This document shows, in pieces, positions 26,323-51,114 of a stretch of DNA of 64,000 nt. The DNA is from an uncultured Desulfuromonadaceae bacterium. Its GTDB lineage: Bacteria; Desulfobacterota; Desulfuromonadia; Geobacterales; Pseudopelobacteraceae. The notes under the pieces were generated by a model, which saw only the letters and a program-made list of their open reading frames with translations, did no database searches and had not been told where the DNA came from. Each line of letters begins with the position of its first letter. Within the stretch, counting starts at the first letter, position 1. The position numbers and the translations under genes are program-made. The stretch covers positions 13,575 to 77,574 of the forward strand of contig CAXYUZ010000011.1 in the NCBI GenBank assembly GCA_964292275.1, in the 5' to 3' direction.

Positions 26323-27720
26323 ATGGAATACAAGATCAAGATCACCTGCCCGGAATGCAACTTCTTCAAGGTTTTCCCGGAAGATCTCCTGCCGAATGGT
26401 GCAAAAACACTGACCTGTCCAAAATGCAATAAAACCTTTCCACTGACCGCCGATTCAATCGCCGTACATTGCGAGCCTGACCCGCCGGCCAGTGTCACAA
26501 ATCCCCCTGCATCAGCAGTGCCACCACCATTGCCAGACAGCACCGACACAGCAGCTCAAATACTACCCCCGCCACTGCCGCAAACAGGTCAACAACCTGA
26601 ACCAGGCGAAACATCCAGCCAGCAGGCCGCAACCCCTCCGCCAATCCCGGTTACCGGTCAGCCAGAGGGACAAACACCCGGCAACCCGCAGACCCTGAAT
26701 TTCGACTTCAAGGGAACAGCAAAAGAATACTTCGGCATCTGGATCGTCAACACCCTGCTGCAGATCATCACCTGCGGAATCTACTCCCCCTGGGCCAAGG
26801 TGCGCCGGAGAAGGTTCTTCTACGCCAGTACCCTGCTGCATAACGAGCCGTTCGACTACCTGGCGGATCCTCTGGTGCTCTTCAAGGGGTGGCTGATCGG
26901 CGCTGTCATGCTGATCCTCTACAGTGTCAGCAATCAGATCAGCCCTTTCCTGAGCATGGCCATCGGTATGATCATATTCGTCGCCATCCCCTGGCTGATC
27001 GTCCGCTCCAAGGTATTCAACAACAGCAATTCAGCGCACCGCAACATCCGTTTCGGATTCAAACCAAACTACCATGAATCCTACGCCGTCTTCATGGGAC
27101 TGCCGATGCTGGTGCCAATCACACTGGGAGCGGCAGCACCCTACGTCAAGTACAGCCAGATCAAGTTTCTGGTGGAGAATACACTTTACGGATCAACACC
27201 CTTCACATTCACTGCAAAGGCCAAGGATTTTTATAAACTTTACATCAAGGTCTTTGGCGGTTTTCTGGCGCTTTTCATCATTACGATCGCATTCGGCAGC
27301 ATGTTGGATCTCAGCAGCTTTTTTTCCAAAAAGGCAACAGAGATATCCGACATGCCCGTTTTATTTTTCCCGCTGATGATCTTCGTGGTGATCAGCTATT
27401 TTCTGCTGATTGTCTACCTGACCACCGAACTGACCAACCTGACCTGGAACAAGACCACCATTACCGGCAACAGCTTTAAAAGTGTGCAGAACCCGTTCAA
27501 GGTGGCCTGGCTTCTGTTCACAAACCTTTTGGCAATCACCCTGACATGCGGTCTGCTGACCCCCTGGGCGACGGTCAGAATGACCCGTTACCGTCTTGAA
27601 TGCCTTTCTCTGGAAACAACCAACGGCATCAGCAGCTTTACCTGCGGCGACCAGAACTACACCACAACCGCCACCGGCGAAGAGATCAGCGATGTATTCG
27701 GCATCGATATCGGTTTATAA
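26323..27720 (+). CDS. Zinc-ribbon (MJ0042-type) + Pro-rich linker + DUF898 (YjgN-like) polytopic membrane protein
   Basis: N-terminal CPEC...CPKC zinc ribbon, about 90 aa of Pro/Thr/Gln-rich linker, then two internally duplicated membrane halves (GIYSPWAKVRRRRFF / GLLTPWATVRMTRY). Confidence 0.65.
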   Translation: MEYKIKITCPECNFFKVFPEDLLPNGAKTLTCPKCNKTFPLTADSIAVHCEPDPPASVTNPPASAVPPPLPDSTDTAAQILPPPLPQTGQQPEPGETSSQQAATPPPIPVTGQPEGQTPGNPQTLNFDFKGTAKEYFGIWIVNTLLQIITCGIYSPWAKVRRRRFFYASTLLHNEPFDYLADPLVLFKGWLIGAVMLILYSVSNQISPFLSMAIGMIIFVAIPWLIVRSKVFNNSNSAHRNIRFGFKPNYHESYAVFMGLPMLVPITLGAAAPYVKYSQIKFLVENTLYGSTPFTFTAKAKDFYKLYIKVFGGFLALFIITIAFGSMLDLSSFFSKKATEISDMPVLFFPLMIFVVISYFLLIVYLTTELTNLTWNKTTITGNSFKSVQNPFKVAWLLFTNLLAITLTCGLLTPWATVRMTRYRLECLSLETTNGISSFTCGDQNYTTTATGEEISDVFGIDIGL

Positions 27721-27728
27721 AAACGGCC

Positions 27729-28769
27729 ATGAACAAGTCAGAAGCGGGATATTACGACGGCAAGGTTTCAACACGCTCACAGGTTTCACTGATCAGTGAC
27801 AATCATACCCTGACCATTGTTGGCGACGGGATCCACCAGATCTACAAGCTTGACGAGGTCCGTGTTTCGGACAAAATCGGCTCTGCCAGACGAAATATCC
27901 TTCTGCCGGACGGTGGACTCTGCGATCCGGACAGACAGGCGTTTGCCAATGATCTGGAACGTCTCCAGAAGCGTGGCCACGCAAACAACATTATCCACAA
28001 GCTGGAAATAAACCTGCACTATGCCCTGGCAGCCCTGCTGCTGACGGCCCTGCTGGTCTTTGCCTTCATCCGCTTTGGCGTACCTCCGCTATCAAAATAT
28101 GTCGCCTTTGCCATCCCCCCCTCCACGGAAAACATGCTCGGCAAACACACCCTGGAAACCCTCGACACCCTGGTCTTCAAACCGAGCAAATTGAATCAAG
28201 AGCGCCGCAAACAGCTGACGGCCCGTTTCAAACAGGTCAGCGCCGCCATTCCCGGAACAGAACAGTGCCGTCTTGAATTCCGCAGCGGAGAATCAGTGGG
28301 TGCCAATGCCATGGCGCTCCCATCGGGCATTGTAGTTGTCACCGATGATCTGGTGGCACTGTCTAAAAACGACGACGAACTGGCCGGCGTCATGGCCCAC
28401 GAACTTGGCCATGTCCTGCATCGCCACATCCTGAGACACTCACTGCAAAGCTCGATTACCGGCCTGCTCATCGCAACACTGACCGGGGACATCACATCGG
28501 CCACATCCATCTCGGCCTCACTGCCGACAGCGTTGGTCAACGCCTCTTACTCCCGTGACTTTGAACGCGAAGCGGATGATATGGCCATCAGCTATATGAA
28601 AAAGAGCGCCATTCCGGTTAGCCGCTATGCCGACATCCTCGCCAGACTGCAGAGCCAGCTTGACGGCAAAAAGGGTTCCAAAAACAAGGACGAGCTGCCA
28701 TTCAAAAATTACCTCTCCACACACCCGGAAACAACCGAACGAATCAAACGCGTGCAGGAGTCGCACTGA
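27729..28769 (+). CDS. M48 family zinc metalloprotease (HtpX-like) with novel N-terminal cytoplasmic domain
   Basis: HExxH motif MAHELGHVLHRH plus downstream FEREAD. A TM hairpin follows an N-terminal soluble domain of about 100 aa. Start sits 8 bp after the DUF898 gene stop. Confidence 0.75.
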   Translation: MNKSEAGYYDGKVSTRSQVSLISDNHTLTIVGDGIHQIYKLDEVRVSDKIGSARRNILLPDGGLCDPDRQAFANDLERLQKRGHANNIIHKLEINLHYALAALLLTALLVFAFIRFGVPPLSKYVAFAIPPSTENMLGKHTLETLDTLVFKPSKLNQERRKQLTARFKQVSAAIPGTEQCRLEFRSGESVGANAMALPSGIVVVTDDLVALSKNDDELAGVMAHELGHVLHRHILRHSLQSSITGLLIATLTGDITSATSISASLPTALVNASYSRDFEREADDMAISYMKKSAIPVSRYADILARLQSQLDGKKGSKNKDELPFKNYLSTHPETTERIKRVQESH

Positions 28770-30614: not shown

Positions 30615-30700
30615 TAATATCGTGACATAGATTTTAAATGATGCGTTACGAGGCCTTGCCGCTAACACACCATTTAAAATCTGAGACTCCTGCAAAATAA

Positions 30701-30790
30701 TTGTCATCCCCGAGTGCCGTTATCAGGGATCCAGACTTTTCAGGCAATCAGAATCTGGATTCCCGATCAAAACCGCTTCGGGAATGATAA
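30701..30790. repeat. Palindromic copy of MITE-like repeat family (module + inverted module)
   Basis: ttgtcatccccgagtgccgttatcagggatccagact ... agaatctggattcccgatcaaaaccgcttcgggaatgataa. The arms are inverse complements and each resembles the 38024-38060 module. Confidence 0.6.
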
Positions 30791-30863
30791 TTTTGAACTT
30801 TTACAAGAAACTTGCTCAATATTTTTTACTATCACATCAACAGTAACCACAGGAGATCAAACC

Positions 30864-33137
30864 ATGGGCTTTATCATCAGTCACTACCAGCTATTAATCG
30901 GGCTGGTTCTGCTTATCATCCTGCTCTGGAACTCGATAGTCATTGTCGGCGGCAATGAGATTGCGGTTCTGGAACGCAAGTACTTCGGGGCCAAGATGCC
31001 GCAGGGGCGGGTTGTCGCCATGTCCAGCGAGATCGGCGTCCAGGCGCGTACCCTCGGCCCTGGCCTGCATCTGCTGATTCCGTTCCTCTACACGACTAAA
31101 AAACAGCTCTTCACCAACATTGCCGAAAATGAGATCGGTATGCTCGAATCCATTGACGGCGATCCCGTACCGGCGGGCAAGATCTTTGCCAAGGTGGTCG
31201 AAGGGCACAACGCCTTCCAGGACGGCGAAGCCTTCCTGCACAACGGCGGTGAAAAGGGGCCGCAGATCCAGATCCTTCCACCGGGTTGCTATCGTATCAA
31301 CCCGGCCCTGTTCCGGATCAAGAAGCTTCCCGCAGTGACCGTTGAAGAAAACGAGGTTGCCCTGATTTCCTCCGTGGACGGTAGCCCGATACCTCCCGGC
31401 AAGATTTTTGCCAAGGTGGTCGAAGGGCACAACGCCTTCCAGAACGGTGAGGCATTTCTACAGAATGGCGGTGAAAAAGGGCCACAGATTGAACTGCTCC
31501 CCCCCGGCACCTACCGGATCAACCTCGATCTGTTCACCGTCCGCAAGGTTCCGGTAGTCATCATCGACAAAGGTCAAATTGGCGTTGTAACCTCCATGGA
31601 CGGGGAACAGATCCCGGCTGGACGGCTTCTGGGACGTCAGGTTCCAAAACATTCCAACTTTGAAAACGGCCAGGCCTTCCTGCACAACGGCGGTCAGAAG
31701 GGGCCGCAAATTGACATACTGCTTCCCGGTACATACCGTATCAATACCGATCTGTTCCATGTCGAGATCAAGGATGCCACTGTCATCCCGGCCAACAAGG
31801 TCGGTCTGGTAACCGCACTGGACGGTGAACCGCTCCCCGAGGCCGAATATGTCGCCAAACCGGTCACCGGCCATACAGATTATCAGGATGCATCCAAATT
31901 TCTGACTGCCGGGGGGCAGCGCGGCCCGCAGTTTGATGTACTCAAACCGGGCACCTATTACATCAACCCGCTGACCTTCAAGGTCGAACTGGATGACGTG
32001 GCAATAGTCGAACGCGGTCAGGTAGCCGTTGTCGTCTCCAACGTGGGTGAGGAACCGCCTGAGATTAAAAACGCTGTGGAGAGCACCGACAGTGAATCCC
32101 TGCAGGGAGTGGACGAACGGGTAAATCTGGGGATTGAGCGCTATGTCGTACCAAAGGGATTCCGCGGTATCCAGCAGGAGGTGGCCGGCCCCGGTTTCTA
32201 CTACCTCAACCGCCGCGCCTACATCGCCTATGTGGTTGACACAACCAACATCAGCGTTGACTGGGACGACGGTGCAGAAACCCGTTTCAACCCGCTCAAG
32301 GTCGTCTCCCGCGACGGCTTTGAAATCAACGTATCGGTCAAGGTTGTTATCCGTGTCCGTCCGGATCAGGCACCATATATGGTCTCCAAGATCGGTTCCA
32401 CCGAGAATCTGATCCAGCATGTCATCCACCCGATGATCGACTCCAGCTTCCGCAACCAGGCATCATCCACCTCGGCGATGAACTTCATGCAGGATCGCCA
32501 GGAGGAACAGCGCAAGGCAGAGGAACGCGCCCGCAAGGAACTGGAAAAATACCATGTGGAATGCGTCTCCGTACTGATCTGCCAGATCATGCTGCCGCAG
32601 GATCTGATGGACACCCAGACCCGCAAGATCATTGCCCAGCAGCAACAGGCCATGTACCAGGATCAGCAGAAGGCCGAGCAGACCCGTATCGCCACCGAAA
32701 AAACACGGGCCGAGGCCGACCAGCAGAAAAATCTGGTAGAGGCGGAGATCGGCGTCAAGATTGCCGAACAGAACAAGGAGAAGGCGATCCGCTTCGCCGA
32801 GGGTGATGCCGAGGGGATCCGCCTCAAGGCAGAGGGTGAGGCCAAGGGTATCAAGGCACGCGGTGAGGCAGAGGGGGCAAAAATTCTCGCCATGGGTGAG
32901 GCGACTGCCAAGGCCTACGAACTGCAAAACCGCGCCGTCGGCCAGCAGGGTGTTACCGCCATCGAAATCGCCAAGCAGATTGCCAGCGGCAACATCAAGG
33001 TCACACCGGACTTTCTGGTTCAGGGGGGTGAAAACATGGGAGGGCTACTGTCGGCATTCCTGACCCAGATCATTGCCGGCAAACAGGCGGCTGCGACCGT
33101 CCAGAACAGTGATCAAACGGAAGTAAAAACGATCTGA
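30864..33137 (+). CDS. Flotillin-like (SPFH/band-7 + flotillin C-terminal coiled-coil) membrane protein with ~5 tandem N-terminal repeats
   Basis: Start at ATG 30864 after AGGAGA; the track start 30714 lacks an RBS. N-terminal TM segment. About five tandem repeats of roughly 75 aa of type (D/N)G.P.P.GKIFAKVVEGHNAFQ.GEAFL.NGGEKGPQI..LPPGTYRIN, then SPFH and an Ala/Glu/Lys-rich coiled coil (EAEGAKILAMGEA). Confidence 0.75.
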   Translation: MGFIISHYQLLIGLVLLIILLWNSIVIVGGNEIAVLERKYFGAKMPQGRVVAMSSEIGVQARTLGPGLHLLIPFLYTTKKQLFTNIAENEIGMLESIDGDPVPAGKIFAKVVEGHNAFQDGEAFLHNGGEKGPQIQILPPGCYRINPALFRIKKLPAVTVEENEVALISSVDGSPIPPGKIFAKVVEGHNAFQNGEAFLQNGGEKGPQIELLPPGTYRINLDLFTVRKVPVVIIDKGQIGVVTSMDGEQIPAGRLLGRQVPKHSNFENGQAFLHNGGQKGPQIDILLPGTYRINTDLFHVEIKDATVIPANKVGLVTALDGEPLPEAEYVAKPVTGHTDYQDASKFLTAGGQRGPQFDVLKPGTYYINPLTFKVELDDVAIVERGQVAVVVSNVGEEPPEIKNAVESTDSESLQGVDERVNLGIERYVVPKGFRGIQQEVAGPGFYYLNRRAYIAYVVDTTNISVDWDDGAETRFNPLKVVSRDGFEINVSVKVVIRVRPDQAPYMVSKIGSTENLIQHVIHPMIDSSFRNQASSTSAMNFMQDRQEEQRKAEERARKELEKYHVECVSVLICQIMLPQDLMDTQTRKIIAQQQQAMYQDQQKAEQTRIATEKTRAEADQQKNLVEAEIGVKIAEQNKEKAIRFAEGDAEGIRLKAEGEAKGIKARGEAEGAKILAMGEATAKAYELQNRAVGQQGVTAIEIAKQIASGNIKVTPDFLVQGGENMGGLLSAFLTQIIAGKQAAATVQNSDQTEVKTI

Positions 33138-33146
33138 CCGGATCGC

Positions 33147-35387
33147 CTATGACGGCAGGGTTGTTGAGTCCTTGGGAGGGTTCTGACAGGAAACCTTGCC
33201 GCCACAGGCGGCCGGCCGATCCGGCATGAAACGGCAGAAGAGCAGATCGCTGCTGTTGCAGGAGATTGCGTCACCACTCCCCCTGAAACAACAGACTCGA
33301 TCAATGTCACGCATGACAGCTGCATGACGTGGATGTGTACTCAAGAACAGCTCGGTCAGTTTATCCACCGGCATAGGCCTGGCATAGTAGTACCCCTGCA
33401 CCTCATAACAGTCATGGGCAAGCAGATAGGCCTCCTGCTCGGCATATTCAATCCCTTCGGCAACCACCTCCAGATGCAGACTGCGGGCCATGCTGATAAT
33501 TGCCGCCAGCAGCTGGTTATCCTCCTCATCCTCATGGACATGCTGCAGAAAGGAGCGGTCGATCTTGAGCACATTGACCGGCAGATGCCGCAGCTGACTG
33601 AGCGAAGAATAACCGGTACCAAAGTCATCAATACTGATCTGAACTCCCAGCCGTTGCAACTCCCTCAAGTAGCCGACCGAATGTTCAAAGTTCTCCATCA
33701 GGGCCCCCTCCGTAATCTCCAGTTCGAGCGCCTGCACACAGAGCCTGTTCTCAACGATTGACTCCTTGACAATCTCGATCAGATTCTGGCGTTGCAGCTG
33801 CAACGGCGAGACATTAACGGAGAGACGGGGGAGATAAACCCCCTGGAGGTGCCACTTCTGAAGCTGATGGCATGCCTCGCGGATCACCCATTCACCAATG
33901 GCCAGAATCTGGCCGGTACTCTCGGCCAGCGGAATGAATTTATCGGGGGGGATCAGTCCCAACACGGGATGATTCCAGCGGATCAGCGCCTCCGCGCCGG
34001 CCCAGCATTTCTTCTGCAGGTTGATCCGCGGCTGGTAATACAGTTCAAGCTCGCCCTGCTCCAGCGCCCTGTGCAGGTCATTCCCCAGGCCAAGCCGCTC
34101 GGAAACCTTCAGGTGAAGCGCGCTGGAAAAAAGTTCCACATTATTTTTGCCCTTCTCCTTGGCCAGATACATGGCCGTATCGGCGCACTTGACGAGCAGA
34201 TCAACCGTTGTCCCATGTTCAGGATAGAGCGCTACCCCGATACTGGCCGACACAAACAGGCTGTTGTCCAGAATTATATATGGCTCAAAGAGACTCTTGA
34301 TGTGCTTTCTGGCAACCATCTGGGCATTTTTAAAACTCTTCACATTTTGCAGAAAGATGATGAACTCATCCCCCCCCAGACGCGCCAGGGTATCATCGGC
34401 ACGGGTCAATCGCGACAATCGCTGCGCAGTTTCCTGGAGCAGGATATCACCGACCTTGTGACCATGGGTGTCGTTAATCAATTTGAAATCATCCAGATCA
34501 ATGAACAGAATCGCCAAAACCTCGCCTGCACGCTCGGCACGCTGGATCGCCTTTTCCAGGCGGTCATTGAAGAGCGTTCTGTTAGGCAGTTTGGTCAACG
34601 AATCAAAATTCGCCATCTCGTGCAACTGGGCCTGACGCTTCAGCAGGGCATCATCACGCTGGGAGATTTCGGAAAGCATTTCATTGAAACTATCCGATAG
34701 CTGATCAATCTCCTCCGTATCACTATGGGCAACCCGCTTGGAAAAGTCCTTGTTCAGACTGACGTCACGCATCGCTTTTGCAATGTCAATCAGCGGCTCC
34801 GTAACAACCCGCTGGAACCGTTCGGCCAGGAAATAGCTGATGGCCAGTGAAAAAAGCATGATGATCACACCGATCCCGGCACTGACCATGATTTTATCGG
34901 CGATAACCCGGCTATCCTGCTCGACAAGTGTTGTGCCGACACGACTCCCGTCCCTGTAAATAGGGCGTTCGACAACAATGGCCAGATTCCAGATACTGGC
35001 GCCGACCTTCTTGCGCAACAGCTCCAGTTGGATGTTATTATCCTCTGGCTGCAAAAAGGCGGTGTCCTGGCTGTAACGCGCACTGATCCGTCCCTGTTCA
35101 TTCAAGACAAAAAACTGTTTTATGGATGGATCGGCCCTGAGTGAAACCAATGAACGCGCAATGGCCTGATCATCACCAAAGGTCAGCGCAGCGCCAACAT
35201 CGATGGCGACAATATCACTCAACGATACCAGCCGGTTGACACTTTCACGATTAAAGGAAATGTAGTTATGCACCAGAAAGCAGACAAAGGAGGCCATCAA
35301 CACAACCAGACAGGCCAGCATAATGACAAGCCGCTGCTTGTTGCGAAAACTGCCGACAGAATGGAAGAAACTTTCGAAGCGCTGCAT
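33147..35387 (-). CDS. YfiN/TpbB-like membrane sensor with periplasmic domain, HAMP, GGDEF (RLGGDEF) and EAL (EALIRW) domains
   Basis: Two TM segments flank a periplasmic domain of about 140 aa. Both GGDEF and EAL signature motifs are intact. About 60 aa of C-terminal tail after the EAL domain is low-complexity. Confidence 0.8.
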   Translation of the reverse strand: MQRFESFFHSVGSFRNKQRLVIMLACLVVLMASFVCFLVHNYISFNRESVNRLVSLSDIVAIDVGAALTFGDDQAIARSLVSLRADPSIKQFFVLNEQGRISARYSQDTAFLQPEDNNIQLELLRKKVGASIWNLAIVVERPIYRDGSRVGTTLVEQDSRVIADKIMVSAGIGVIIMLFSLAISYFLAERFQRVVTEPLIDIAKAMRDVSLNKDFSKRVAHSDTEEIDQLSDSFNEMLSEISQRDDALLKRQAQLHEMANFDSLTKLPNRTLFNDRLEKAIQRAERAGEVLAILFIDLDDFKLINDTHGHKVGDILLQETAQRLSRLTRADDTLARLGGDEFIIFLQNVKSFKNAQMVARKHIKSLFEPYIILDNSLFVSASIGVALYPEHGTTVDLLVKCADTAMYLAKEKGKNNVELFSSALHLKVSERLGLGNDLHRALEQGELELYYQPRINLQKKCWAGAEALIRWNHPVLGLIPPDKFIPLAESTGQILAIGEWVIREACHQLQKWHLQGVYLPRLSVNVSPLQLQRQNLIEIVKESIVENRLCVQALELEITEGALMENFEHSVGYLRELQRLGVQISIDDFGTGYSSLSQLRHLPVNVLKIDRSFLQHVHEDEEDNQLLAAIISMARSLHLEVVAEGIEYAEQEAYLLAHDCYEVQGYYYARPMPVDKLTELFLSTHPRHAAVMRDIDRVCCFRGSGDAISCNSSDLLFCRFMPDRPAACGGKVSCQNPPKDSTTLPS

Positions 35388-35391
35388 CGTG

Positions 35392-35916
35392 TCAGTTCCT
35401 GATGTCGTTAGCCAGCTTTAGCAGTTGGGTACCAAATGAGATCGCTGCCTTGCGGGCAGCCCCCTGGTTGAGATCAAAGGTAATCCGGTTATTTAAGGTT
35501 ACCAGCTGGACCATCCCCCCCTGACGGCTGAAATCGCGCATATCACTGATGGTCAGAATTCCGCGCCGGTTGGCCTCTGCCAGCAGAGAGGCAAGCCGGT
35601 AACGCTCGGACGATGCAATGAACAGGACCTGGCAGCAGCCAAGCTGATCAAGACTCCTGATCCGGCGAACCTCCAATGGCCGCCCCTTGATAATTTTACC
35701 CCGGCTGGTTTCCAGAACCTCATCCAGCGGTGTATTACCGATCAACCCGATTACAAAGGTTGAACAACGCCCCGCTGACGCAGGATAGGTCACAAAGATC
35801 GGCATATTCAGCAGATAGTTGGCCTTGACGCGGTATTCCTGCGGAAAGTCAGCGGCAGCCATTGCTGAACAGGTAAACAGACTGAAGAACAATATGAGCA
35901 GGAGACGTTTGATCAT
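35392..35916 (-). CDS. yfiR: YfiR family periplasmic protein (DUF4154)
   Basis: Signal peptide and YfiR-like sequence (FPQEYRVKANYLLNMPIFVTYP...). Immediately upstream of the GGDEF-EAL gene. Confidence 0.7.
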   Translation of the reverse strand: MIKRLLLILFFSLFTCSAMAAADFPQEYRVKANYLLNMPIFVTYPASAGRCSTFVIGLIGNTPLDEVLETSRGKIIKGRPLEVRRIRSLDQLGCCQVLFIASSERYRLASLLAEANRRGILTISDMRDFSRQGGMVQLVTLNNRITFDLNQGAARKAAISFGTQLLKLANDIRN

Positions 35917-35918
35917 GT

Positions 35919-37931
35919 TCAGAACCGCCAGGTTGCCTTGACTCGAAAACTGATCCCGTCCTGCGCAATTTCACGCAATGCCTCACCGCGGCTGTTATAC
36001 TGTTCAGAACCGGCCGGATGAGAGTAACGGGAATCAAACAGGTTATAGACCGAGGCAGATAGATCCAGATTTTCGATGATATCGCGGCTTAACAGCGTCA
36101 GATTAAAGATAACGCCCCCGGCGATCCGCTCACCAAGACTGTTCAGCCGGGCACTGTTGTAAACCCCCTCCAGGGTTGCAAAACTTTTCCTGAGCGGAAG
36201 GGGCGCCGTCAATGACGCCTTGGCGATATGGCGGGGTGAGTTGGTCACGAAACGTGCTGAATTAGTATTTCTTACATCCTGATAGGTATAATTGATCCGG
36301 CTGATAAAACCGTTTTCCCAGCGCCCCTCGGCATAGAGTTCCGCCCCCTTGGCCTCAACCTGGCTCTGATTCTCGTAAACCAGAAGGCCGTTTGCATCAG
36401 TGACCTGTTCGATCAGATCGCTGATTCGGGTATAAAATCCGTTGATACCAGCCTTGTAATTTTCACCGATATACTGGTCCACCCCTAGCTCGACCGTACG
36501 AATCTTTTCCGGCTTAAGATCCGGATTGCCGCGGGAACTGATCTGATCACCATAATAGAGCTCATAGGCATTGGGTGCCCGGAACGCCTCACCATAGGAG
36601 AGACGCAGCACCGTTGTCAGGGACGGTTTCCAGATCAGGGCCGCACGCGGGTTAACGGTTGAACCGAAGTTGTCGTAATGATCCCAGCGCAAACCGGCAT
36701 TCAGTATCAGATTGTCAAGAATATGGTATTCGTCCTGCAGGTAATACCCCTGTACAAAGAGGCGGCGATTGCTGTCAAGGTAACTGTTGTATTGCGGCAG
36801 AACATCAAAATTCCGCTGCTGCTGACTGAACTGCCAGCGATGTTCCATACCGCCGGTCAACTGATGGGAACCAAGCGACTTGACAAGAAAGATGTCACTG
36901 CCGATCCAGTCCGCCAGCGTCGTATCACGATTAACCGTTCTTATCTGTGTAAGCTCATCCAGGCGGGGATAATCACCATCGAACTCATAATGGTTATAGG
37001 TCAGACGCGCGTTGATATCTGCAAACCCGGCATGGTGATTGTAGTTGATACCGGCCAGCGTATGACGGTCACTGATCTTGGCAGAAGGATCATTTGATGT
37101 CGTTCCATAGGATGCGGTGGGATTATCCTTGTCCCTGGTCTGGTGCAGCACCAGCATGGAGAAGTCCTTCCAGCTCCCCTTGGCCAGCAGATCCCAGGAG
37201 TTTTCACCATCCATCCCCCTGGAAATTCCGCCATTTGTCGCCGCATATTCCGGGAACCAGAGCTTCTGTATCCCGGCAATATCGCGATAGCTGCCGGAGA
37301 TCATAAAATCGGCGCCATTATCAAACTTGCTGCCACCGCTAACGCGCCCGGTCCATGCATTAAAGCTGCCGCCAGAGGCGGAGATTTCCCCCCCGGAAAG
37401 ACTGTTGCCATCACGGGTAATGACATTGATAACCGCCAGAAAGGCATTGGTGCCATAGAGCGACGAACCGGGACCACGGATAACCTCTATTCGCTCGATC
37501 AAGTCCATATCAACCGGGAAGTCGCTCCCCAGCGGGGCCTGTTCATATACCGCGTCATTCAGACGATAACCGTCAACCAGCAGCAGGATCCGGGTATTGT
37601 AATCACCCAGCGGACTGAAACCGCGCAGGCCAACATAGTGATAGCTGCGGTCGTAGGTCGTATAGAAACCACGTACCCGGTTCAGCGCCTCGGCAAGATT
37701 GCGATAACCGCTATTACGGATATCATCGCGGGTAATAATTGAAATCGATGCCGGGGCATCAACCAACTCCTGCTGATACTTGCTGGCGCCGGTAACCGTG
37801 GTCACCTCGGTATTAAGCAGTGATTCCAGCGCATTGGGTGAATTTTCAAGCGCAGCGACGATTTCACCGGCAAAGGTAAAAGGCGAGTTCAGGAGGAGAA
37901 ATAATACCATCAGTGGGAACGTTATCTTCAT
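35919..37931 (-). CDS. TonB-dependent outer-membrane receptor
   Basis: Signal peptide, a plug domain (DAPASISIITRDDIRNSG), a beta-barrel and a C-terminal aromatic (RF). Its stop lies 2 nt from the yfiR start. Confidence 0.85.
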   Translation of the reverse strand: MKITFPLMVLFLLLNSPFTFAGEIVAALENSPNALESLLNTEVTTVTGASKYQQELVDAPASISIITRDDIRNSGYRNLAEALNRVRGFYTTYDRSYHYVGLRGFSPLGDYNTRILLLVDGYRLNDAVYEQAPLGSDFPVDMDLIERIEVIRGPGSSLYGTNAFLAVINVITRDGNSLSGGEISASGGSFNAWTGRVSGGSKFDNGADFMISGSYRDIAGIQKLWFPEYAATNGGISRGMDGENSWDLLAKGSWKDFSMLVLHQTRDKDNPTASYGTTSNDPSAKISDRHTLAGINYNHHAGFADINARLTYNHYEFDGDYPRLDELTQIRTVNRDTTLADWIGSDIFLVKSLGSHQLTGGMEHRWQFSQQQRNFDVLPQYNSYLDSNRRLFVQGYYLQDEYHILDNLILNAGLRWDHYDNFGSTVNPRAALIWKPSLTTVLRLSYGEAFRAPNAYELYYGDQISSRGNPDLKPEKIRTVELGVDQYIGENYKAGINGFYTRISDLIEQVTDANGLLVYENQSQVEAKGAELYAEGRWENGFISRINYTYQDVRNTNSARFVTNSPRHIAKASLTAPLPLRKSFATLEGVYNSARLNSLGERIAGGVIFNLTLLSRDIIENLDLSASVYNLFDSRYSHPAGSEQYNSRGEALREIAQDGISFRVKATWRF

Positions 37932-41703: not shown

Positions 41704-43206
41704 TTACGGCATTATCAGTCTGATGTTATCCGCAGGTCTCTCAAATGCCTTGTATTTCTCCAGGGCATGGCAGGCTGCCGTCAAATCGCCGAAATCTATT
41801 TTGCTGATAAATTCCTGGGCGACGCACATGACTCTTATGAACGCACTTGGATCCTTGTGATTGGAGAGCAGTTTCAGGGATGAGATATATTCGTTGCGGT
41901 ATACGCTTGGAATGATGATCCGGCAGATACCTGCAGCCACAAGCTCGGCATTCATCATTGCCCGCGCAGTCCTGCCATTACCGTCGTCAAACGGGTGCAC
42001 CTCGGATACCAGATACATCATGAACAATGCGCGTGCCAAAGGATCAATCAAAGAGTTGTAGAACGCAAAACCTTGCGTAAGTGTGCCCTTTACCAGTTCC
42101 GGTGAAACAAAATAGGTTGTGCCGGCCCGGTTTCCTTTCTCTTTCAGTTCCCCAGGTCTTTTGTCCGGACGGCCCGCCAGGATCATGGCATGACGGTTTC
42201 TCAAAAGCTCCAGAAAAGATGCGGCATCTGCAGGTTTACGGCGCATATCCTCCAGATTGCCGACCACGCGATAAGTGCCAAGGATATCGTGAGCGTCCTC
42301 AGGACGTGACTGGGGGATTACTCCTGAAAAAATGATTCCCAGGGCTTCATCTACTTCAAATTCAGTCCCCTCAATAAAATTGGAAAAATAGGCATCGAAA
42401 AAACTTTCATTGTAAAAAGCATTCCCGGGCTCGTAAAGGCAACCTCTTTCAGGTAATACCTCGCGTGCCAGAGCAGTGCGGAGAGCTTCAAACTGCTCCA
42501 GCCGCACAGGATCATATGGCTCGCCGCTGAAGTACGATTTTGCTACCATGGTTTTCAATTCAGCTTCCCGTGTCCGGAGCAGGCTGCCAATAATACGGTC
42601 CAACTGCTGAAATTCTTTTTCATGACCTAAATCAGCTGCAATGCTGCGGGCATTATCCCGTATCCTGTTCAACTCATCTTCGCCCTTTATGCGCAGGATG
42701 ATGGTCAATTTTTCCTCGACAGCCGTCTGTCCTGCCGATTTGGATATTCCCCCCTTGTCTTTTGTCGGTGCAAGGTTTTCCAGTAACAGCCTTGCAGTGG
42801 AAGACATATAAAGTCCTCCAACGAACGGCATATCACCATTTGCAGGCCCCGAGCCTATAATCCTGATAATACGCAAACCGGGCAACTCGGTGGTCTTTTT
42901 ATAGTTATAGGAGATAAAAACCGAGCCATCCGCAGCAGGTTGATTTTCAAGCGCAGTGCGGAACCCGATCACCCCTCCGGGTGCCAGCATGCCGACAATC
43001 TGCCAGCGGTTCCTGGCGACAATTACCTCCACCGGCTCGCTCATATTGCGTGTGTACAGACGTGGGCCGATTTTTCTGATGATACCCTGTTTAACCATTT
43101 GCGATACTTCGCGTGACGTATCGCTCTCGGAGAGAAAAACTTCCTGTTGAATATTTTTGTTCCGTAAAGTCATCTGGATACCCGCATCTGGAGATTTTGG
43201 TAACAA
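41704..43206 (-). CDS. Fic/DOC family protein (AMPylase-like) with large N-terminal domain
   Basis: Fic motif HPFDDGNGRTARA. 500 aa. Confidence 0.8.
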   Translation of the reverse strand: MLPKSPDAGIQMTLRNKNIQQEVFLSESDTSREVSQMVKQGIIRKIGPRLYTRNMSEPVEVIVARNRWQIVGMLAPGGVIGFRTALENQPAADGSVFISYNYKKTTELPGLRIIRIIGSGPANGDMPFVGGLYMSSTARLLLENLAPTKDKGGISKSAGQTAVEEKLTIILRIKGEDELNRIRDNARSIAADLGHEKEFQQLDRIIGSLLRTREAELKTMVAKSYFSGEPYDPVRLEQFEALRTALAREVLPERGCLYEPGNAFYNESFFDAYFSNFIEGTEFEVDEALGIIFSGVIPQSRPEDAHDILGTYRVVGNLEDMRRKPADAASFLELLRNRHAMILAGRPDKRPGELKEKGNRAGTTYFVSPELVKGTLTQGFAFYNSLIDPLARALFMMYLVSEVHPFDDGNGRTARAMMNAELVAAGICRIIIPSVYRNEYISSLKLLSNHKDPSAFIRVMCVAQEFISKIDFGDLTAACHALEKYKAFERPADNIRLIMP

Positions 43207-43725: not shown

Positions 43726-44383
43726 AATAAACTAACGAAAACCATATCATGTTATTAAAACTATGAACCACAATACTAGACCAAATTGACTTTGTTTTTT
43801 CATATACTAACGCATATATGATGCCGGGGATAAATAGGTGTACAAAGTCAATTCGTAATCCATGCAATACCATGTAAATGAATGCCGAAACAATTACACC
43901 AGTTGATACACAAAAGTCGGATTTAATTATATTGTAAATATAGCGTCTGCAATAAACTGCTTCTAAAACAGGACCAACGAAGCAAAGCATAACCAAAAAA
44001 TAGAGTCTAGCTACAGGCCCGTAATTTAAAAACAAAGTATATTCCTTAGGCTTGGCAAGTAACTTGTTCAGCCATATGCCATATGGAAAATTGATTAACA
44101 CACATAATATTAATCCGCATACACAATAATAAATAAACTTGTTAAAATCAGTGATCTTAGTTTCTTGTGGACTATAAAACAACCCCAGGCAATAGGTCGT
44201 AGTTAAGATCAAAAGGAATAATATTGTGTGTGATACCAGGTGCTCATTCAAATATTTAACTGGAATAACAACATGAACGAGTTGAGTTAATATAAAGTAA
44301 AATATTAACGAAAATATCACATGTTTACTATTTTTAATTTTTGCCATGGCCTTATCAATATTCATGCAAGCTACCCAATGCAA
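43718..44383 (-). CDS. CPBP (CAAX protease/Abi) family intramembrane protein; putative immunity protein for orphan Rhs-CT
   Basis: 221 aa, polytopic, AT-rich. CPBP motifs (PVLEAVYCRRYIY ; VLHGL ; HSFNNMIW). Overlaps the end of the orphan rhs-CT ORF. Confidence 0.65.
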   Translation of the reverse strand: MHWVACMNIDKAMAKIKNSKHVIFSLIFYFILTQLVHVVIPVKYLNEHLVSHTILFLLILTTTYCLGLFYSPQETKITDFNKFIYYCVCGLILCVLINFPYGIWLNKLLAKPKEYTLFLNYGPVARLYFLVMLCFVGPVLEAVYCRRYIYNIIKSDFCVSTGVIVSAFIYMVLHGLRIDFVHLFIPGIIYALVYEKTKSIWSSIVVHSFNNMIWFSLVYYV

Positions 44384-46245
44384 GTATTTGGATTGTCTTT
44401 ATATTTCGGCTTGTTATTGTTAGGTGTTTTGTAATTCTTAAAAGAAGGATTATTGGGATCAATTGGCAAGGGATCCTTCGGCGGCTTCGTTAAAAGGAAT
44501 CCTGGTAAATCAAAATACCCAGGTGAACCATTCATAAACTCATTAGCTAAGAATCTGCCAGCTTTATCTAACGCCGGGAGATACGGTGCAACACGCTCAA
44601 TTAAATTCAAGAATGGGATCAAGCCAGTAGGGTCTGTAAAATTCACCGGATTATTTTGGACATATCCATACAAATTAACATCCCCACCCGCAAATGAAAT
44701 GGGGTCACGTGATATGAATCTTCCTTCCACCGGGTCGTAGTATCTGGCGCGGTAGTAGTGCAGGGCGGTTTCTCTGTCCCATTCTCTGCCGGTGAAGGTG
44801 TAGGTGTTTTTGAAGTCGGTTGTCTGCCTTGGTATGCCGAATGTGGTGTAGCTGTAGCTTTGTACTGTGTTGCCGTTGTTGTCGGTTATGGCGGTGGTGC
44901 TGCCCAGTCCGTCGGTATGGTAGTAATAGTACTGTCCGTTTCTTTCCATGGCAAGGTGTTCGTCGGTGTTTATGCCGTGGGTGTAGTTGGTTGTTGTGTT
45001 TGTGGTTGTGCCGTTTTCTGTTGTTGCGGTTGTTTCTACGGCTATGTTGTCGTTGTCATAGATGTAGTTTGTGGTGGTTGTTTTGGTGTTGCCGTTGGTT
45101 GTTATGGTTGTCTGTTTTTCTGTTCTTCTGCCGAATGGGTCGTATTTGAATGTGATGGTGCGTTTGTCGGTTTTGTTGGTGAGTTCGGCTTTTATGAGGC
45201 GGTTTTCCGGATCCCAGGTGTATGTCCAGTTTTTGTCGGTGTTGTTTGTGGTTTTGGTGATGGGGTTGCCGTTGTTGTCGTGGGTGTAGCTGTATTGTTT
45301 GCCTTTTACCAGTTGGTTTGCTGCTTCATGCTGGTATCTGGTGTCATGTGGTCCAGGGCCTTGTGTGCGGTTGCCGTTGGCGTCGTAGGTGTAGGTTTCA
45401 TATCCTTTGGGTGTTGTGGCCTGTGTCAGGCGATAGATGGCGTCATAGGTGTATGTTTCGTTTGTACTGCCGGTTTTTGCTGTGCGGTTGCCGGTTTTGT
45501 CGAGGGTGTATTCTGCCTTGGTGATGATGCTGTTGTCTGCTTTGGTGTGGGTGATGGCTGTCAGGCGGTCGGCATCGTCATAGGAGTAGGTTGTCTTGCT
45601 GTTGTTGGGATAGTTGAGTGTTGTTCTGCGGTTGTTGTTGTCGTAGCTGTAGCTGAATGATCCTGCCAGTGATGTTATGGATGTGAGTCTGTTGGCATCG
45701 TCGTAGCTGTAGGTTGTGGTTTTTGCGGGGGTGCCGGTTTTATTGATGGTGGCGGTGGTGCGGTTGCCGTTTATGTCGTAGGTGTAAGCAATGTTGTAGC
45801 CGCGGCTGTCTGTGGCTGTCAGCATGCGGTTTCTGCTGTCATAGGTGAAGCTGTAACCTATGTTGCTGTTTGTTGCGGTGAGGATGTTGTCGTTGTTGTC
45901 ATAGCTGTAGCTGATGCTGCTGTTGTCCGGCCATGTTTTTGATGTGATCCGGTCTGCAGCATCGCGGGTGTAGGTGATGGTTTTGCTGTTGGCGTCGGTT
46001 ACTGCGCTGATGATGCCGTCGGCGGTGTAGCTGTATGTGGTGGTATTGCCTTTGGGGTCGGTCTGTCTGGTCAGGCGGCCGGCTTTGTCGTATTCATAAC
46101 TGGTGCTGTTGGCAAGCGGATCTGTGAGTGATACCAGTTTGTCATTGCCGCCACCGCCGCAGGATGCACAGCCGGAGCCGCTGTAGGCCAGTGCGGTGGT
46201 GTGGTTGAGGGGGTGGCGGCTTTTTATTTTATGTTTCCTTCTATT
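44371..46245 (-). CDS. Orphan Rhs C-terminal cassette: Rhs repeats + PxxxxDPxGL boundary + alternative CT toxin domain; lacks start codon upstream of internal Met 45825
   Basis: The open frame runs from the TGA at 46246-46248 to the stop at 44371, with no ATG/GTG/TTG before 45825. 44640-46222 is nearly identical to main rhs 47577-49137. The CT sequence after NPVNFTDPTGL differs from the main gene. Confidence 0.7.
   Translation of the reverse strand, partial: NRRKHKIKSRHPLNHTTALAYSGSGCASCGGGGNDKLVSLTDPLANSTSYEYDKAGRLTRQTDPKGNTTTYSYTADGIISAVTDANSKTITYTRDAADRITSKTWPDNSSISYSYDNNDNILTATNSNIGYSFTYDSRNRMLTATDSRGYNIAYTYDINGNRTTATINKTGTPAKTTTYSYDDANRLTSITSLAGSFSYSYDNNNRRTTLNYPNNSKTTYSYDDADRLTAITHTKADNSIITKAEYTLDKTGNRTAKTGSTNETYTYDAIYRLTQATTPKGYETYTYDANGNRTQGPGPHDTRYQHEAANQLVKGKQYSYTHDNNGNPITKTTNNTDKNWTYTWDPENRLIKAELTNKTDKRTITFKYDPFGRRTEKQTTITTNGNTKTTTTNYIYDNDNIAVETTATTENGTTTNTTTNYTHGINTDEHLAMERNGQYYYYHTDGLGSTTAITDNNGNTVQSYSYTTFGIPRQTTDFKNTYTFTGREWDRETALHYYRARYYDPVEGRFISRDPISFAGGDVNLYGYVQNNPVNFTDPTGLIPFLNLIERVAPYLPALDKAGRFLANEFMNGSPGYFDLPGFLLTKPPKDPLPIDPNNPSFKNYKTPNNNKPKYKDNPNTCIG
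44640..46222. repeat. 1.58-kb direct repeat (orphan copy) of rhs core
   Basis: Near-identical to 47577-49137 with only a few substitutions. Ends at the PxxxxDPxGL-encoding boundary. Confidence 0.85.
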
Positions 46246-46667
46246 TCAGATAGTTCTAAGAGAGCGTCATCTAATTCTTCTCGTGTTTCAATATCAAATG
46301 GCTTCATTGAGTTGATAAGATTTATTAACTGCTTGTATTTTAAAATAGCTGTGCTTAATTCTCCCATATTTTTGTAATTTTGAGCTAAATCATGTAATGC
46401 CCTTATATTATCAGGCTGAATACTCAAAACTTTACAATAGCAATCTCTTGCAGCCATCATATCATTGACGACATTTTTATCATTTGAGCCATCAAGTTCT
46501 CTTGCAAACGCACCTAATTCTAAAACATTACCATTAAGTATCAATGCATCTATATCGTTAGCATTATTACCAAGCAACTTCTTGAGTATACAGATTGCTT
46601 TGTTGTAATTACCTACTAATGATTCTTTTTTTGCGGACTCCAACAATTGAATGCGATTTGTTTTCAA
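46224..46667 (-). CDS. TPR-repeat protein (AT-rich), possible immunity/adaptor gene
   Basis: 147 aa with TPR-like helical repeats. AT-rich codon usage unlike the flanking rhs. Confidence 0.5.
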   Translation of the reverse strand: MKTNRIQLLESAKKESLVGNYNKAICILKKLLGNNANDIDALILNGNVLELGAFARELDGSNDKNVVNDMMAARDCYCKVLSIQPDNIRALHDLAQNYKNMGELSTAILKYKQLINLINSMKPFDIETREELDDALLELSEIEGNIK

Positions 46668-46675
46668 AACAATCC

Positions 46676-46762
46676 TCGTATTTGAATTTGACGATACATT
46701 TGTCAGCTTTATTAGTGAGTTCGGCTATTATGAGCCGTTTTTCGGATCCCATGAAACATGGG
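46676..46762 (-). pseudogene. Decayed rhs fragment
   Basis: cgtatttgaatttgacgatacatttgtcagctttattagtgagttcggctattatgagccgtttttcggatccca is about 80% identical to rhs 45131-45210 and 48060-48140, with AT-shifted substitutions. Confidence 0.6.
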
Positions 46763-46774
46763 AGCAATGAGAAT

Positions 46775-47149
46775 TTACTCAATATATCTTAAAGTTAATT
46801 CACCGCCATCCACTAAATCCTTCATTTGTTCATTGTTTTCCAGTATGTACTGAGAATAAGTAAGTTCTGTCCCACTTACAGGGCGATCATGATCTAAATC
46901 AAATGGTTCAGGATTGCTTATGTTAATTAATTTCCTAAGACCTTCATAAACCATTTTTGCTGCTTTGTTATCGAGAGTCATATCATTATTATAAAAAGCC
47001 TCATTCCTACCAATGACTTCTGCTTTCTCAAGCGCTTCCGTTGATGTTTCGGCTTCAATCAAAACAAAATTTTCATAAACTGGTATTTGTGATTGTGGTT
47101 GTTCAAGGGTTTTAATACTCATAATTATACTTGCAACATACCAAGTCAT
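46775..47149 (-). CDS. Putative Rhs immunity protein (small cytoplasmic protein)
   Basis: 124 aa. ATGA overlap with the main rhs stop. AT-rich. Confidence 0.55.
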   Translation of the reverse strand: MTWYVASIIMSIKTLEQPQSQIPVYENFVLIEAETSTEALEKAEVIGRNEAFYNNDMTLDNKAAKMVYEGLRKLINISNPEPFDLDHDRPVSGTELTYSQYILENNEQMKDLVDGGELTLRYIE

Positions 47150-50100: not shown

Positions 50101-51114
50101 GGTGACAGTAAAGGTAAGCTTGCGGCCAACCGGATCGGTGATGGAACTCAGATAGCTGCCGTTATAGGTAATGACGGTTTTGTTACCGTTGCTGTCGGTA
50201 ACAGCGGTCAGCAGGCCGGAGTTGTTAAATGACTGCACCAGGCCGTTTTTAAAGGTGCGGGTGTATGTGGAATCACTGTTCTTTACAATGACTGAATCAT
50301 CGGAACTGTTGGCAGGTGGCAGATAACTGCTGCCGGAAAGGGTAAAAACAAGGTTGTCACCATCACCGAGACGAAGTGTAATGGCGCTGGATGATTCCTT
50401 GAGGCTGATGTTGTAACCATGTGTCCAGCCACGCCCAAGCGGCAGATCGGTTGTATCGAGGCTGTTGTAGGATATGTCAAAGGATAAACTCTCAGGTTTG
50501 GCGATGACGGTCTGGGAGTGGTAGTAGTTGCCGCTTTTCAGGTTGGCGGCTGAGTTGGTTGTTGCGGTGTTGGCCGGGCAGGTTTTGCATTGACCGAGGT
50601 CGCGGGGGGGAATAACCGGTGGCGGCGGTGGTGGATAGTTGCAGGTAATCAGGTCGTTACTGGCTGCGCCGCCAGCCCCGAAGAACACCTTTTTGATGAC
50701 ATCGGTATAAACCTGCTTATTGGCAAGGGTGCCTATATTAACTCCTTCAATGGTGCCGGTGTAAGATTTATGCACCAATATGAAGTGTGTGCCCTTGCTG
50801 TTACGGAATACCTTGTTGACATTGTATGAGTTGTTCAAGCCGTATTGCTGCAGTGAGGCTGGGGTTGTTGTGCTGTCGCCATATGAGGCTTCATAGTGTA
50901 CTTTACCGTTCACACAGGTGATTAACGTATCAATGTAATGATGGGTTGTGCTGTCATTGTCACCGGCAGCCGGACAGGTGTCTGCGGTATATTCAATGCC
51001 GATGTTATTAATGCCGTTTTGTACACTGCAAACGCCTTCCGCATTTACAACGGTCGGGGCAATTAATAACGCGGCCACGCTCAAGGCTGAACAGATTTTT
51101 TTAAACGAGAACAT
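47146..51114 (-). CDS. rhs: Rhs/YD-repeat polymorphic toxin, full length, with Sec signal peptide and variable C-terminal toxin domain
   Basis: 1322 aa. Signal peptide MFSFKKICSALSVAALLIAPTVVNA, dozens of YD/Rhs repeats (xYxYDxxGN), the Rhs core, a NPVNWVDPDGL boundary, then about 170 aa of unique CT. Confidence 0.9.
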   Translation of the reverse strand: MFSFKKICSALSVAALLIAPTVVNAEGVCSVQNGINNIGIEYTADTCPAAGDNDSTTHHYIDTLITCVNGKVHYEASYGDSTTTPASLQQYGLNNSYNVNKVFRNSKGTHFILVHKSYTGTIEGVNIGTLANKQVYTDVIKKVFFGAGGAASNDLITCNYPPPPPPVIPPRDLGQCKTCPANTATTNSAANLKSGNYYHSQTVIAKPESLSFDISYNSLDTTDLPLGRGWTHGYNISLKESSSAITLRLGDGDNLVFTLSGSSYLPPANSSDDSVIVKNSDSTYTRTFKNGLVQSFNNSGLLTAVTDSNGNKTVITYNGSYLSSITDPVGRKLTFTVTNGYITAIADPAGRTTSFTYTSNLLNKVTDPAGNSWNYVYDSNSRMSQKTNPEGFQSTNVYDAAGKNSAATDPEGRTKYITYTDSTTSTITEKDGGIWIRKYDPTLNAPTAITDPLGNTTSYTYDSKGNLLTRTEPGSKTTSYTYDADNNTTSITDPLGRVTSFTYNSRGQVLTATDPKGNVTSNSYDTKGNLLQTTDPASAVVSYSYDSKGNPLTITDPAGKVVTIAYDTYNNISSITDQNNNTTTYSYDINGNLLTATNPAGKAATVEYDTMNRPVKITDSLGNISQLAYDKIGNRSSITDANGRSTNYTYNYNRQPLTVKNPLNHTTALAYSGSGCASCGGGGNDKLVSLTDPLANSTSYEYDKAGRLTRQTDPKGNTTTYSYTADGIISAVTDANSKTITYTRDAADRITSKTWPDNSSISYSYDNNDNILTATNSNIGYSFTYDSRNRMLTATDSRGYNIAYTYDINGNRTTATINKTGTPAKTTTYSYDDANRLTSITSPAGSFSYSYDNNNRRTGLNYPNNSKATYSHDDADRLTAITHTKTDNSIITKAEYTLDKTGNRTAKTGSTNETYSYDAIYRLTQAATPKGYETYNYDANGNRTQGPGPHDTRYQHEAANQLVKGKQYSYTHDNNGNPITKTTNNTDKNWTYTWDPENRLIKAELTNKTDKRTITFKYDPFGRRTEKQTTITTNGNTKTTTTNYIYDNDNIAVETTATTENGTTTNTTTNYTHGINTDEHLAMERNGQYYYYHTDGLGSTTAITDNNGNTVQSYSYTTFGIPRQTTDFKNSYTFTGREWDRETALHYYRARYYDPVEGRFISRDPISFAGGDVNLYGYVQGNPVNWVDPDGLIAIPWISVPLIPITGKPNFIKPGPGPDPVEWLKNNYNSDNLVVQAWRYWTGKPMLNPEIPIPIQMAKGGIQNKANEYSREASQQPDPCNWLIKQYNNASSTAERMKIKTAQKVLGCRKNSTQNDKCKEKK
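47577..49137. repeat. 1.58-kb direct repeat (main rhs copy)
   Basis: See 44640-46222. Confidence 0.85.

Follow-up and report, generated by a model that had tools for sequence, protein, structure and literature searches.

The 757-amino-acid (aa) protein described here is a member of the SPFH superfamily in which, on the evidence of sequence profiles, the N-terminal beta subdomain of the SPFH domain is present in six copies. Its gene occupies positions 30864-33137 on the forward strand of a 64,000-nucleotide stretch (the window) of contig CAXYUZ010000011.1 from an uncultured Desulfuromonadaceae bacterium. The multiplied unit corresponds to the subdomain named SPFH1 in the cryo-electron microscopy literature (PMC12624060). 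By analogy with SPFH assemblies of solved structure, the most probable reading (roughly 0.6) is that the protein would build a membrane-attached, cytoplasm-facing SPFH cage with a tall, vault-like beta wall made from the tandemly multiplied SPFH1 subdomain.

SPFH1-type modules in the window protein

The chain runs from an N-terminal transmembrane (TM) helix through the modules R0, R1-R4 and R5 to the SPFH2 subdomain, the long CC1 and CC2 helices and a C-terminal tail. The assignments below draw on BLASTP, hhalign, a hidden Markov model (HMM) of the repeat, and the confidence score (pLDDT) of predicted models.

30891..30947, + strand: N-terminal TM helix, aa ~10-28, with a hydropathy maximum of 2.95, preceded by an uncharged N-tail of 9 aa
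30948..31127, + strand: R0, a minimal membrane-proximal SPFH1-type module of 60 aa, aa 29-88 (GPGLHLLIPFLY); hhalign, BLASTP and a weak Band_7 match
31128..31349, + strand: R1, 74-aa repeat, aa 89-162; segment-wise BLASTP and repeat HMM
31350..31571, + strand: R2, 74-aa repeat, aa 163-236; segment-wise BLASTP
31572..31793, + strand: R3, 74-aa repeat, aa 237-310; BLASTP, modelled at pLDDT >90
31794..32015, + strand: R4, 74-aa repeat, aa 311-384; BLASTP, modelled at pLDDT >90
32016..32267, + strand: R5, a diverged copy and at the same time the SPFH1 of the canonical Band_7 domain, aa 385-~468; repeat HMM, hhalign, and the start of Band_7 inside it
32268..32597, + strand: SPFH2 alpha/beta subdomain, aa ~469-578
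32598..32795, + strand: CC1, a long wall helix, aa 579-644, one unbroken helix in both predicted models
32820..33074, + strand: CC2 and C-terminal helices, aa 653-737, rich in Ala, Glu and Gly; the full-length model places helices, with modest confidence, at aa 653-692, 694-707 and 725-737

R1-R4 are four gap-free, in-register units of exactly 74 aa that share 41-66% pairwise identity (BLASTP E 3e-39 to 6e-23), and are tandem repeats far beyond chance. These values come from comparing the repeats segment by segment, cut at the recurring motif, as a BLASTP of the whole protein against itself returned the identity match alone. With the two diverged flanking copies, R0 and R5, the total is six modules. 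The original prediction, made by a model from the letters of the DNA, had counted about five tandem repeats of about 75 aa; the repeats are real, and the count is corrected to four strong copies and two diverged ones, while the consensus string that it proposed fits R1 and R2 closely and R3 and R4 only loosely. R2 is the most recent duplicate of the R1 type, with 66% aa and 70% nucleotide identity to R1, and because the two are 70% identical at the DNA level, their duplication is not very recent. R0 follows directly on the TM helix, carries the motif GPGLHLLIPF, retains the hydrophobic GPGLHLLIPFLY loop, and differs from the repeats only by the absence of a 17-residue helix excursion; it finds R1 by BLASTP with E 5.8e-4. 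R5 carries the motif GPGFYYLN and an acidic insertion of ~35 aa, modelled with low confidence, at aa ~398-432.

The sole Pfam domain in the protein is Band_7 (PF01145), which extends over aa 435-605 and profile positions 16-175 of 176, with E 1.6e-23 and a score of 84.1 bits (cutoff 23.6). Neither an NCBIfam scan nor a phmmer search with the whole protein gave anything significant. The original prediction had named assignment of the repeats to a known unrelated domain as grounds for abandoning it; scanned singly, R1-R4 matched no Pfam family. Two adhesin-type candidates were rejected. The Ig-like repeat Big_14 reached 14-17.5 bits against a cutoff of 27, with no individually significant stretch. 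CshA_repeat has no individually significant stretch in any protein; summed over the whole protein, its score passes the cutoff of 27 bits only in three long relatives with many repeats (51.6, 40.9 and 34.5 bits) and lies at 17.5-26.4 bits in the other relatives showing CshA_repeat, and the window protein has no match to it in Pfam.

The identity of the repeat emerges from profile comparisons. An HMM of the repeat, rebuilt with ~900 copies from diverse relatives, matches R5 over its full length (E 5.4e-10). In hhalign, a repeat profile made from 91 non-redundant repeats, with one R5-type candidate sequence excluded, aligns with the R5 column block over 72 columns at 97.9% probability (E 2.8e-12) and with R0 at 88.4% (E 3.2e-7), whereas the SPFH2 block, used as a negative control, gives 0.1%. 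In addition, R0 weakly matches positions 3-36 of the Pfam Band_7 profile. In relatives such as P0131, P0136 and P0141, the final repeat-like module coincides exactly with the start of the Pfam Band_7 match, at position 2-3 of the profile. Because profile-profile comparison joins the repeat to both R5 and R0, the repeats are identified as multiplied SPFH1 subdomains, six in the window protein, and the resemblance to the N-terminal beta-module of the SPFH domain that had first been remarked on is borne out. A search of the repeat profile against PDB sequences found nothing, the best match being calmodulin at E 0.89.

Among the 91 diverse repeats, four positions are invariant (F36, G41, G44 and Q46), all of them in the helix excursion and beta2 (FQDxxAFLxNGGxKGxQ). 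Most distant repeats also have a single conserved cysteine, at which position the window protein has Gly-His. Such positions could mark a binding site, as opposed to a pure scaffold.

At the level of the whole family profile, the nearest solved relatives by sequence are, as the PDB comparison indicates, QmcA (E 1.2e-5) and prohibitin-2 (E 3.5e-5), with HflC also found, and neither flotillin-1/2 (E 6.8-9.4) nor MVP (E 0.6-1.8). No flotillin-specific model in Pfam or NCBIfam matched the window protein, and the label 'flotillin-like' that the protein had first been given is therefore dropped.

Predicted fold, family and membrane topology

The AlphaFold model that had been proposed as a check was poor for the full-length protein with an alignment of 61 close homologues (pLDDT 54.7). 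A 414-residue construct, aa 237-650, that spans R3, R4, R5, SPFH2 and the start of CC1 and was modelled with a diverse alignment of 77 sequences, gave a pLDDT of 91.2 and a predicted template modelling score (pTM) of 0.73. In this model, each repeat consists of beta1 (7 residues), an excursion with a short helix (FQDxxAFL), beta2 (KGPQIDIL), a PGTY turn, beta3 and beta4. The likening of the GPQ/GPG...P strand to that of stomatin agrees with this strand order. R5 has the same order of strands, plus the acidic insertion, which is disordered. The SPFH1 and SPFH2 fold followed by the long CC1 helix, by which the SPFH / Band 7 superfamily is recognised, is present.

Foldseek comparison with the PDB separates two groups of matches by their extent. 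Prohibitin, stomatin, erlin, HflK/C, flotillin and QmcA align over 217-283 columns, approximately from R5 onward, whereas MVP chains (9R86, 9BW6, 4V60 and others) align over 481-498 columns, the whole query, with E 2e-9 to 1e-7. The top 60 PDB matches contain no all-beta repeat protein other than MVP. We infer that 165 residues correspond to the beta cores of R3-R5, or approximately three MVP repeats. The architecture is a vault-type variant of the SPFH plan. It had at first been described as non-standard, which holds with respect to flotillins, which have one SPFH1, but overlooks the precedent of the multiple SPFH1 modules of the vault (MVP). A fold search of BFVD returned ordinary viral SPFH proteins and two long giant-virus proteins. 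The latter are the Harvfovirus 'prohibitin/SPFH' proteins A0A3G5A4K1 and A0A3G5A5B7 (802 and 507 aa), which align to the model over 545 and 473 columns, respectively, and may carry extra modules before the SPFH domain.

The window protein has more than 5000 whole-protein relatives, annotated only as 'SPFH domain-containing', 'YqiK', 'HflC' or hypothetical. Searched alone against 1.84 billion cluster representatives (clusters at 50% identity), the repeat gives at least 1262 matches at E<=1e-3 and 638 at E<=1e-10, and the repeat-bearing clusters have from 2 to 13-14 copies per protein. The length of close relatives rises with the number of strong repeats: those with 3 (Ignavibacteria) have ~687 aa, those with 4 have 757-790 aa, and those with 5 (Geobacter/Desulfuromonadales) have 830-850 aa. 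Whether a relative has 3, 4 or 5 repeats, its R3 and R4 are positional orthologues of those in the others, and R4 shows 73-93% identity among relatives, whereas close relatives have 1, 2 or 3 copies of the membrane-proximal R1-type unit. Identity in the family is 63-85% over at least seven phyla, and close relatives with 63-80% identity come from Ignavibacteriota, Bacteroidota, Acidobacteriota, Desulfobacterota, Nitrospirota, Spirochaetota and Negativicutes, a distribution that suggests strong constraint and probably horizontal spread. One homologue, with 68% identity, is from a cultured organism, Sporomusa silvacetica DSM 10669.

The largest members are from filamentous cyanobacteria (Symploca, Okeania and Microseira). 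Four cyanobacterial relatives (P0122, P0126, P0131 and P0136) have 6-14 modules, begin with an R0-like module at the very start of the protein, and have no detectable TM helix at their annotated starts; if the start codons are right, these would be soluble, vault-like SPFH proteins. P0126, from Okeania, has 9 modules, a number equal to that of MVP. Synechocystis Sll1021, known as a 'flotillin homologue', might be a further member of the family. Extra domains are present in some other relatives, namely a zinc ribbon, an nSTAND1 NTPase or a VWA domain at the C-terminus. In the set P0121, P0123, P0146, P0200 and P0163, for instance, the repeat/SPFH core is accompanied by a C-terminal VWA in some lineages and by the nSTAND1 NTPase in one. 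P0163 combines VWA and RTX with four repeats and has no SPFH domain, and because of this protein the module can be said to occur outside SPFH proteins.

The window protein has an N-terminal TM helix, as do 116 of 117 close relatives. Averaged over the family, lysines plus arginines number 3.2 in the 15 residues that follow this helix, against 0.09 before it, and the C-terminal flank is the richer one in 115 of the 116 close relatives and in 76 of the 92 distant ones. In relatives with long N-tails, a signal-peptide-like segment precedes the TM helix. The bias in positive charge after the helix and the signal-peptide-like starts are together suggestive of an N-out/C-in orientation, with the bulk of the protein predicted to be cytoplasmic.

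The proposed cage and its alternatives

In the proposed assembly, which is drawn by analogy from all SPFH assemblies solved so far, subunits would homo-oligomerise side by side into a ring closed by a coiled-coil dome. The TM helices and R0, whose hydrophobic loop would sit on the membrane, would hold the ring to the inner membrane on its cytoplasmic side, and R1-R5 would stack into a tall beta-sheet wall in the manner of MVP R1-R9. The cage would fence off a patch of membrane and the cytoplasm above it. Because the modules would stack into the wall, their number (2 to ~14 in the family) would set the height of the cage and the volume that it encloses, with each module contributing an estimated height of roughly 2-3 nm, taken from vault dimensions. 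It is thus plausible, as the original prediction had it, that expansion of the SPFH1 modules enlarges the cage. The identity of 63-85% across at least seven phyla and the positional conservation of R3 and R4 are counted as evidence for function and selection.

Several points weigh against a membrane-attached cage of this kind. Ring formation, subunit number and wall geometry are drawn entirely from analogy, and the topology is read from the positive-inside rule only, while a few relatives have domains that are often extracellular (RTX, VWA, and a weak PG_binding_1 match). At the level of sequence, no homology to MVP could be established. In addition, there is no conserved neighbouring gene (NfeD, protease or cargo gene) to provide a functional handle.

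The relationship to MVP bears directly on an alternative in which the protein is a true bacterial vault protein, that is, a direct relative of MVP with which it shares an ancestral repeat array, as opposed to an independent expansion. In this case, the TM-less members with 9-14 modules would be closed, vault-like capsids, and the TM-anchored members would be membrane-bound half-vaults. The case for such a relationship is that MVP is the only solved structure to cover the repeat region, that the domain order (beta repeats, SPFH2/shoulder, long helix) equals that of MVP, and that the cyanobacterial relatives P0126 from Okeania and P0122 are apparently TM-less with 9-14 modules; known close MVP homologues also occur in Oscillatoriales (bioRxiv 10.1101/872010). 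The SPFH1-like beta repeat array N-terminal to the shoulder (SPFH2), the architecture by which the MVP family is recognised, is likewise present. However, the Pfam models Vault (PF01505), Vault_2-4 and MVP_shoulder (PF11978) match neither the window protein, at E up to 1, nor 13 diverse relatives, in which Band_7 is matched instead, whereas true MVPs carry all five Vault/MVP_shoulder models. QmcA and prohibitin, moreover, are nearer by sequence than MVP (E 0.6-1.8), and the starts of the TM-less relatives could be miscalled. Comparison by hhalign of the repeat, R5, SPFH2 and whole-construct profiles with an alignment of tetrapod MVPs gave probabilities below 8%, in a setting where the MVP profile was shallow (Neff 1.8) and the positive control of SPFH2 against the shoulder also failed. 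The repeats of the window protein are still 41-66% identical and homologous to its own SPFH1, and the R1-type unit varies from 1 to 3 copies, as would result from duplication that is specific to the family and ongoing. Because the copies are highly similar and their number varies, an independent, family-specific expansion is favoured, and direct descent from a shared array is unlikely. Thus, the wall architecture is vault-like, yet the protein cannot be filed as a member of the MVP family.

Two further explanations place less weight on the vault, and both are even less probable. One takes the protein to be an extracytoplasmic, adhesin-like or Ig-like stalk with an N-in orientation and a periplasmic bulk, as in HflK/C, the beta modules being a spacer or a ligand-binding array. 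It draws on the weak summed Pfam signals for CshA_repeat (E down to 1.6e-13, in a 13-repeat relative with no single significant stretch) and Big_14 (E 0.004-0.05), and on the relatives that join the repeat with VWA or RTX, including P0163, which has repeats without an SPFH domain. The positive-inside rule, however, strongly favours N-out/C-in, the adhesin-type matches fall below Pfam thresholds save for the summed CshA_repeat score in three long multi-repeat relatives, one relative has a cytoplasmic STAND NTPase, and the single conserved cysteine of many repeats would be unable to pair within its own module. The other explanation holds that the protein is an ordinary microdomain scaffold of the flotillin/YqiK type, which behaves like FloT/YqiK and in which the repeats are a neutral spacer with no effect on assembly. 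Its SPFH2 and coiled-coil region is indeed canonical, and many relatives are called 'YqiK' or 'HflC' in JGI annotations. A neutral spacer is difficult to reconcile with repeats that are highly conserved (R4 at 73-93% across relatives, the family at 63-85% across phyla), confidently folded (pLDDT >90) and kept in more than 1200 clusters, and the flotillin-specific sequence relationship is not significant; this explanation is as doubtful as the stalk.

A joint reading, speculative and with odds similar to those of direct descent from an MVP-like array, would treat the family as an abundant prokaryotic counterpart of the vault. TM-anchored members would be membrane-bound half-vaults of tunable height, and the cyanobacterial members that have 9-14 modules and seem to lack the TM helix would form free capsids like the vault. 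The MVP array would have arisen from the same process of SPFH1 duplication, of which the sequences of this family still bear the traces, and the family might be the source lineage of eukaryotic or Asgard MVP.

The gene, its surroundings and known SPFH systems

The gene and its expression signals are arranged as follows.

30864-33137, + strand: SPFH-superfamily gene with six SPFH1-type modules and a 757-aa product (ORF reading, Pfam and relatives)
30851..30856, + strand: Shine-Dalgarno sequence AGGAGA, 7 nt 5' of the ATG (direct reading of the sequence)
30673..30701, + strand: candidate sigma-70-like promoter TTTAAA-17-AATAAT (a consensus match alone, not functional evidence)

The open reading frame (ORF) of 757 aa is clean, starts with the ATG at 30864 and ends with a stop codon at 33135-33137; a longer, GTG-started ORF from 30714 in a mechanical listing is not needed. 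The upstream gene ends at 30614, leaving a gap of 250 bp that suggests the SPFH gene has its own promoter. On the downstream side, a convergent GGDEF-EAL gene ends 10 bp from the stop codon. The neighbours in the window (a DSP phosphatase, an MGDG-synthase-like glycosyltransferase and the convergent CHASE8-GGDEF-EAL gene) are unrelated. No NfeD-family gene adjoining the SPFH gene, and no protease or other conserved partner gene, was found at the window locus or at 80 related genome loci, where the most frequent neighbour family is present in at most 10 of the 80. PADLOC matched the 757-aa protein to no defence system.

Elsewhere in the window, three genes convergent with the SPFH gene (33150-37931, - strand) encode a TonB-dependent receptor, a YfiR/HmsC-like DUF4154 protein and a CHASE8-HAMP-GGDEF-EAL protein, and look like a cyclic di-GMP signalling module. 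Two genes at 26323-28766 (+ strand) share ~120 bp, an overlap that suggests a coupled pair: the first encodes a DUF898 membrane protein that has a zinc ribbon at its N-terminus, and runs into the start of the second, an M48 peptidase/DUF7092 gene. An Rhs/YD-repeat toxin locus at 44374-51114 (- strand) encodes an Rhs protein of 1322 aa (RHS_repeat E 1e-98, DUF6531, RHS core). Downstream of this protein lies an Rhs fragment of 484 aa, which has the look of an orphan C-terminal cassette. This region has a strong strand skew in composition, with GC skew up to +0.32 and AT skew down to -0.49. Adjoining it, at 41707-43206 (- strand), is a gene for a 500-aa protein with a Fic/DOC domain at its C-terminus.

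SPFH cages such as those of HflK/C, flotillin, stomatin, prohibitin and erlin have been solved only recently, and the vault is regarded as an odd member of the superfamily, with multiple SPFH1 modules and an unclear prokaryotic origin. The family described here would represent a large, multi-phylum group of bacterial proteins with a vault-type wall that is still anchored to the membrane. Homology between the multiplied modules and the SPFH1 of the same protein can still be demonstrated, and gives a direct view of how an ordinary SPFH protein can evolve a vault-like wall. Moreover, the natural series of 2 to ~14 modules opens the relation of module number to cage height and volume to direct testing, and is perhaps useful for engineering protein cages of a chosen size. 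The 74-aa repeat deserves a domain model of its own, because Pfam leaves ~350 residues of such proteins unannotated.

Compared with known SPFH systems, the most obvious difference is the number of modules. QmcA, stomatin and proteins of the prohibitin type (PDB 8Z5G, 3BK6 and 9O9Z) have a single SPFH1, whereas the window protein has six SPFH1-type modules. Genes for QmcA and stomatin are usually paired with an NfeD gene, a pairing absent at the window locus and at the 80 related loci. The HflK/HflC-FtsH cage (PDB 7VHP and 7WI3) has a periplasmic bulk, a positive N-terminus, a heteromeric composition and a protease as client; in contrast, the window protein has the opposite predicted orientation, one gene and no linked protease partner. 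Flotillins (FLOT1/2 and bacterial FloT/YqiK) resemble it in having an SPFH domain and an extended Ala/Glu-rich helical region, but they have one SPFH1, and the window protein has no significant flotillin-specific sequence match.

The vault is the closest counterpart in architecture, its shell consisting of nine SPFH1-like repeats that are stacked as a barrel wall. MVP (PDB 4V60, 9R86 and 3GF5) has no TM helix, forms a closed 78-mer capsid, and is made of modules of ~55 aa, whereas the window protein has an N-terminal TM helix and 74-aa modules with a helix excursion. Furthermore, it shares no significant sequence similarity with MVP, matches no Pfam Vault or MVP_shoulder model, and has copies that are still 41-66% identical and differ in number between close relatives. 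The vault has been described as an SPFH assembly with multiple SPFH1 modules (PMC11348225; PMC12624060). A search of the literature for bacterial SPFH1 modules in tandem or in multiple copies returned no description besides MVP, and no account of the TM-anchored bacterial family or of its repeat was found in the searchable literature. Prokaryotic MVP homologues have been reported from Myxococcales, Cytophagales and Oscillatoriales (bioRxiv 10.1101/872010), and a 2026 paper, in which such homologues come from only a few bacteria, adds ten MVP-like proteins with five repeats from Asgard archaea (PMC12962969). The reported homologues resemble the window family in having beta repeats, a shoulder and a cap helix. 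However, their discovery relied on similarity to eukaryotic MVP, either in sequence or in reciprocal structure comparison, and the published accounts call them few, whereas the window family is large (at least 1262 clusters at 50% identity), mostly TM-anchored, and annotated only as generic SPFH/Band 7.

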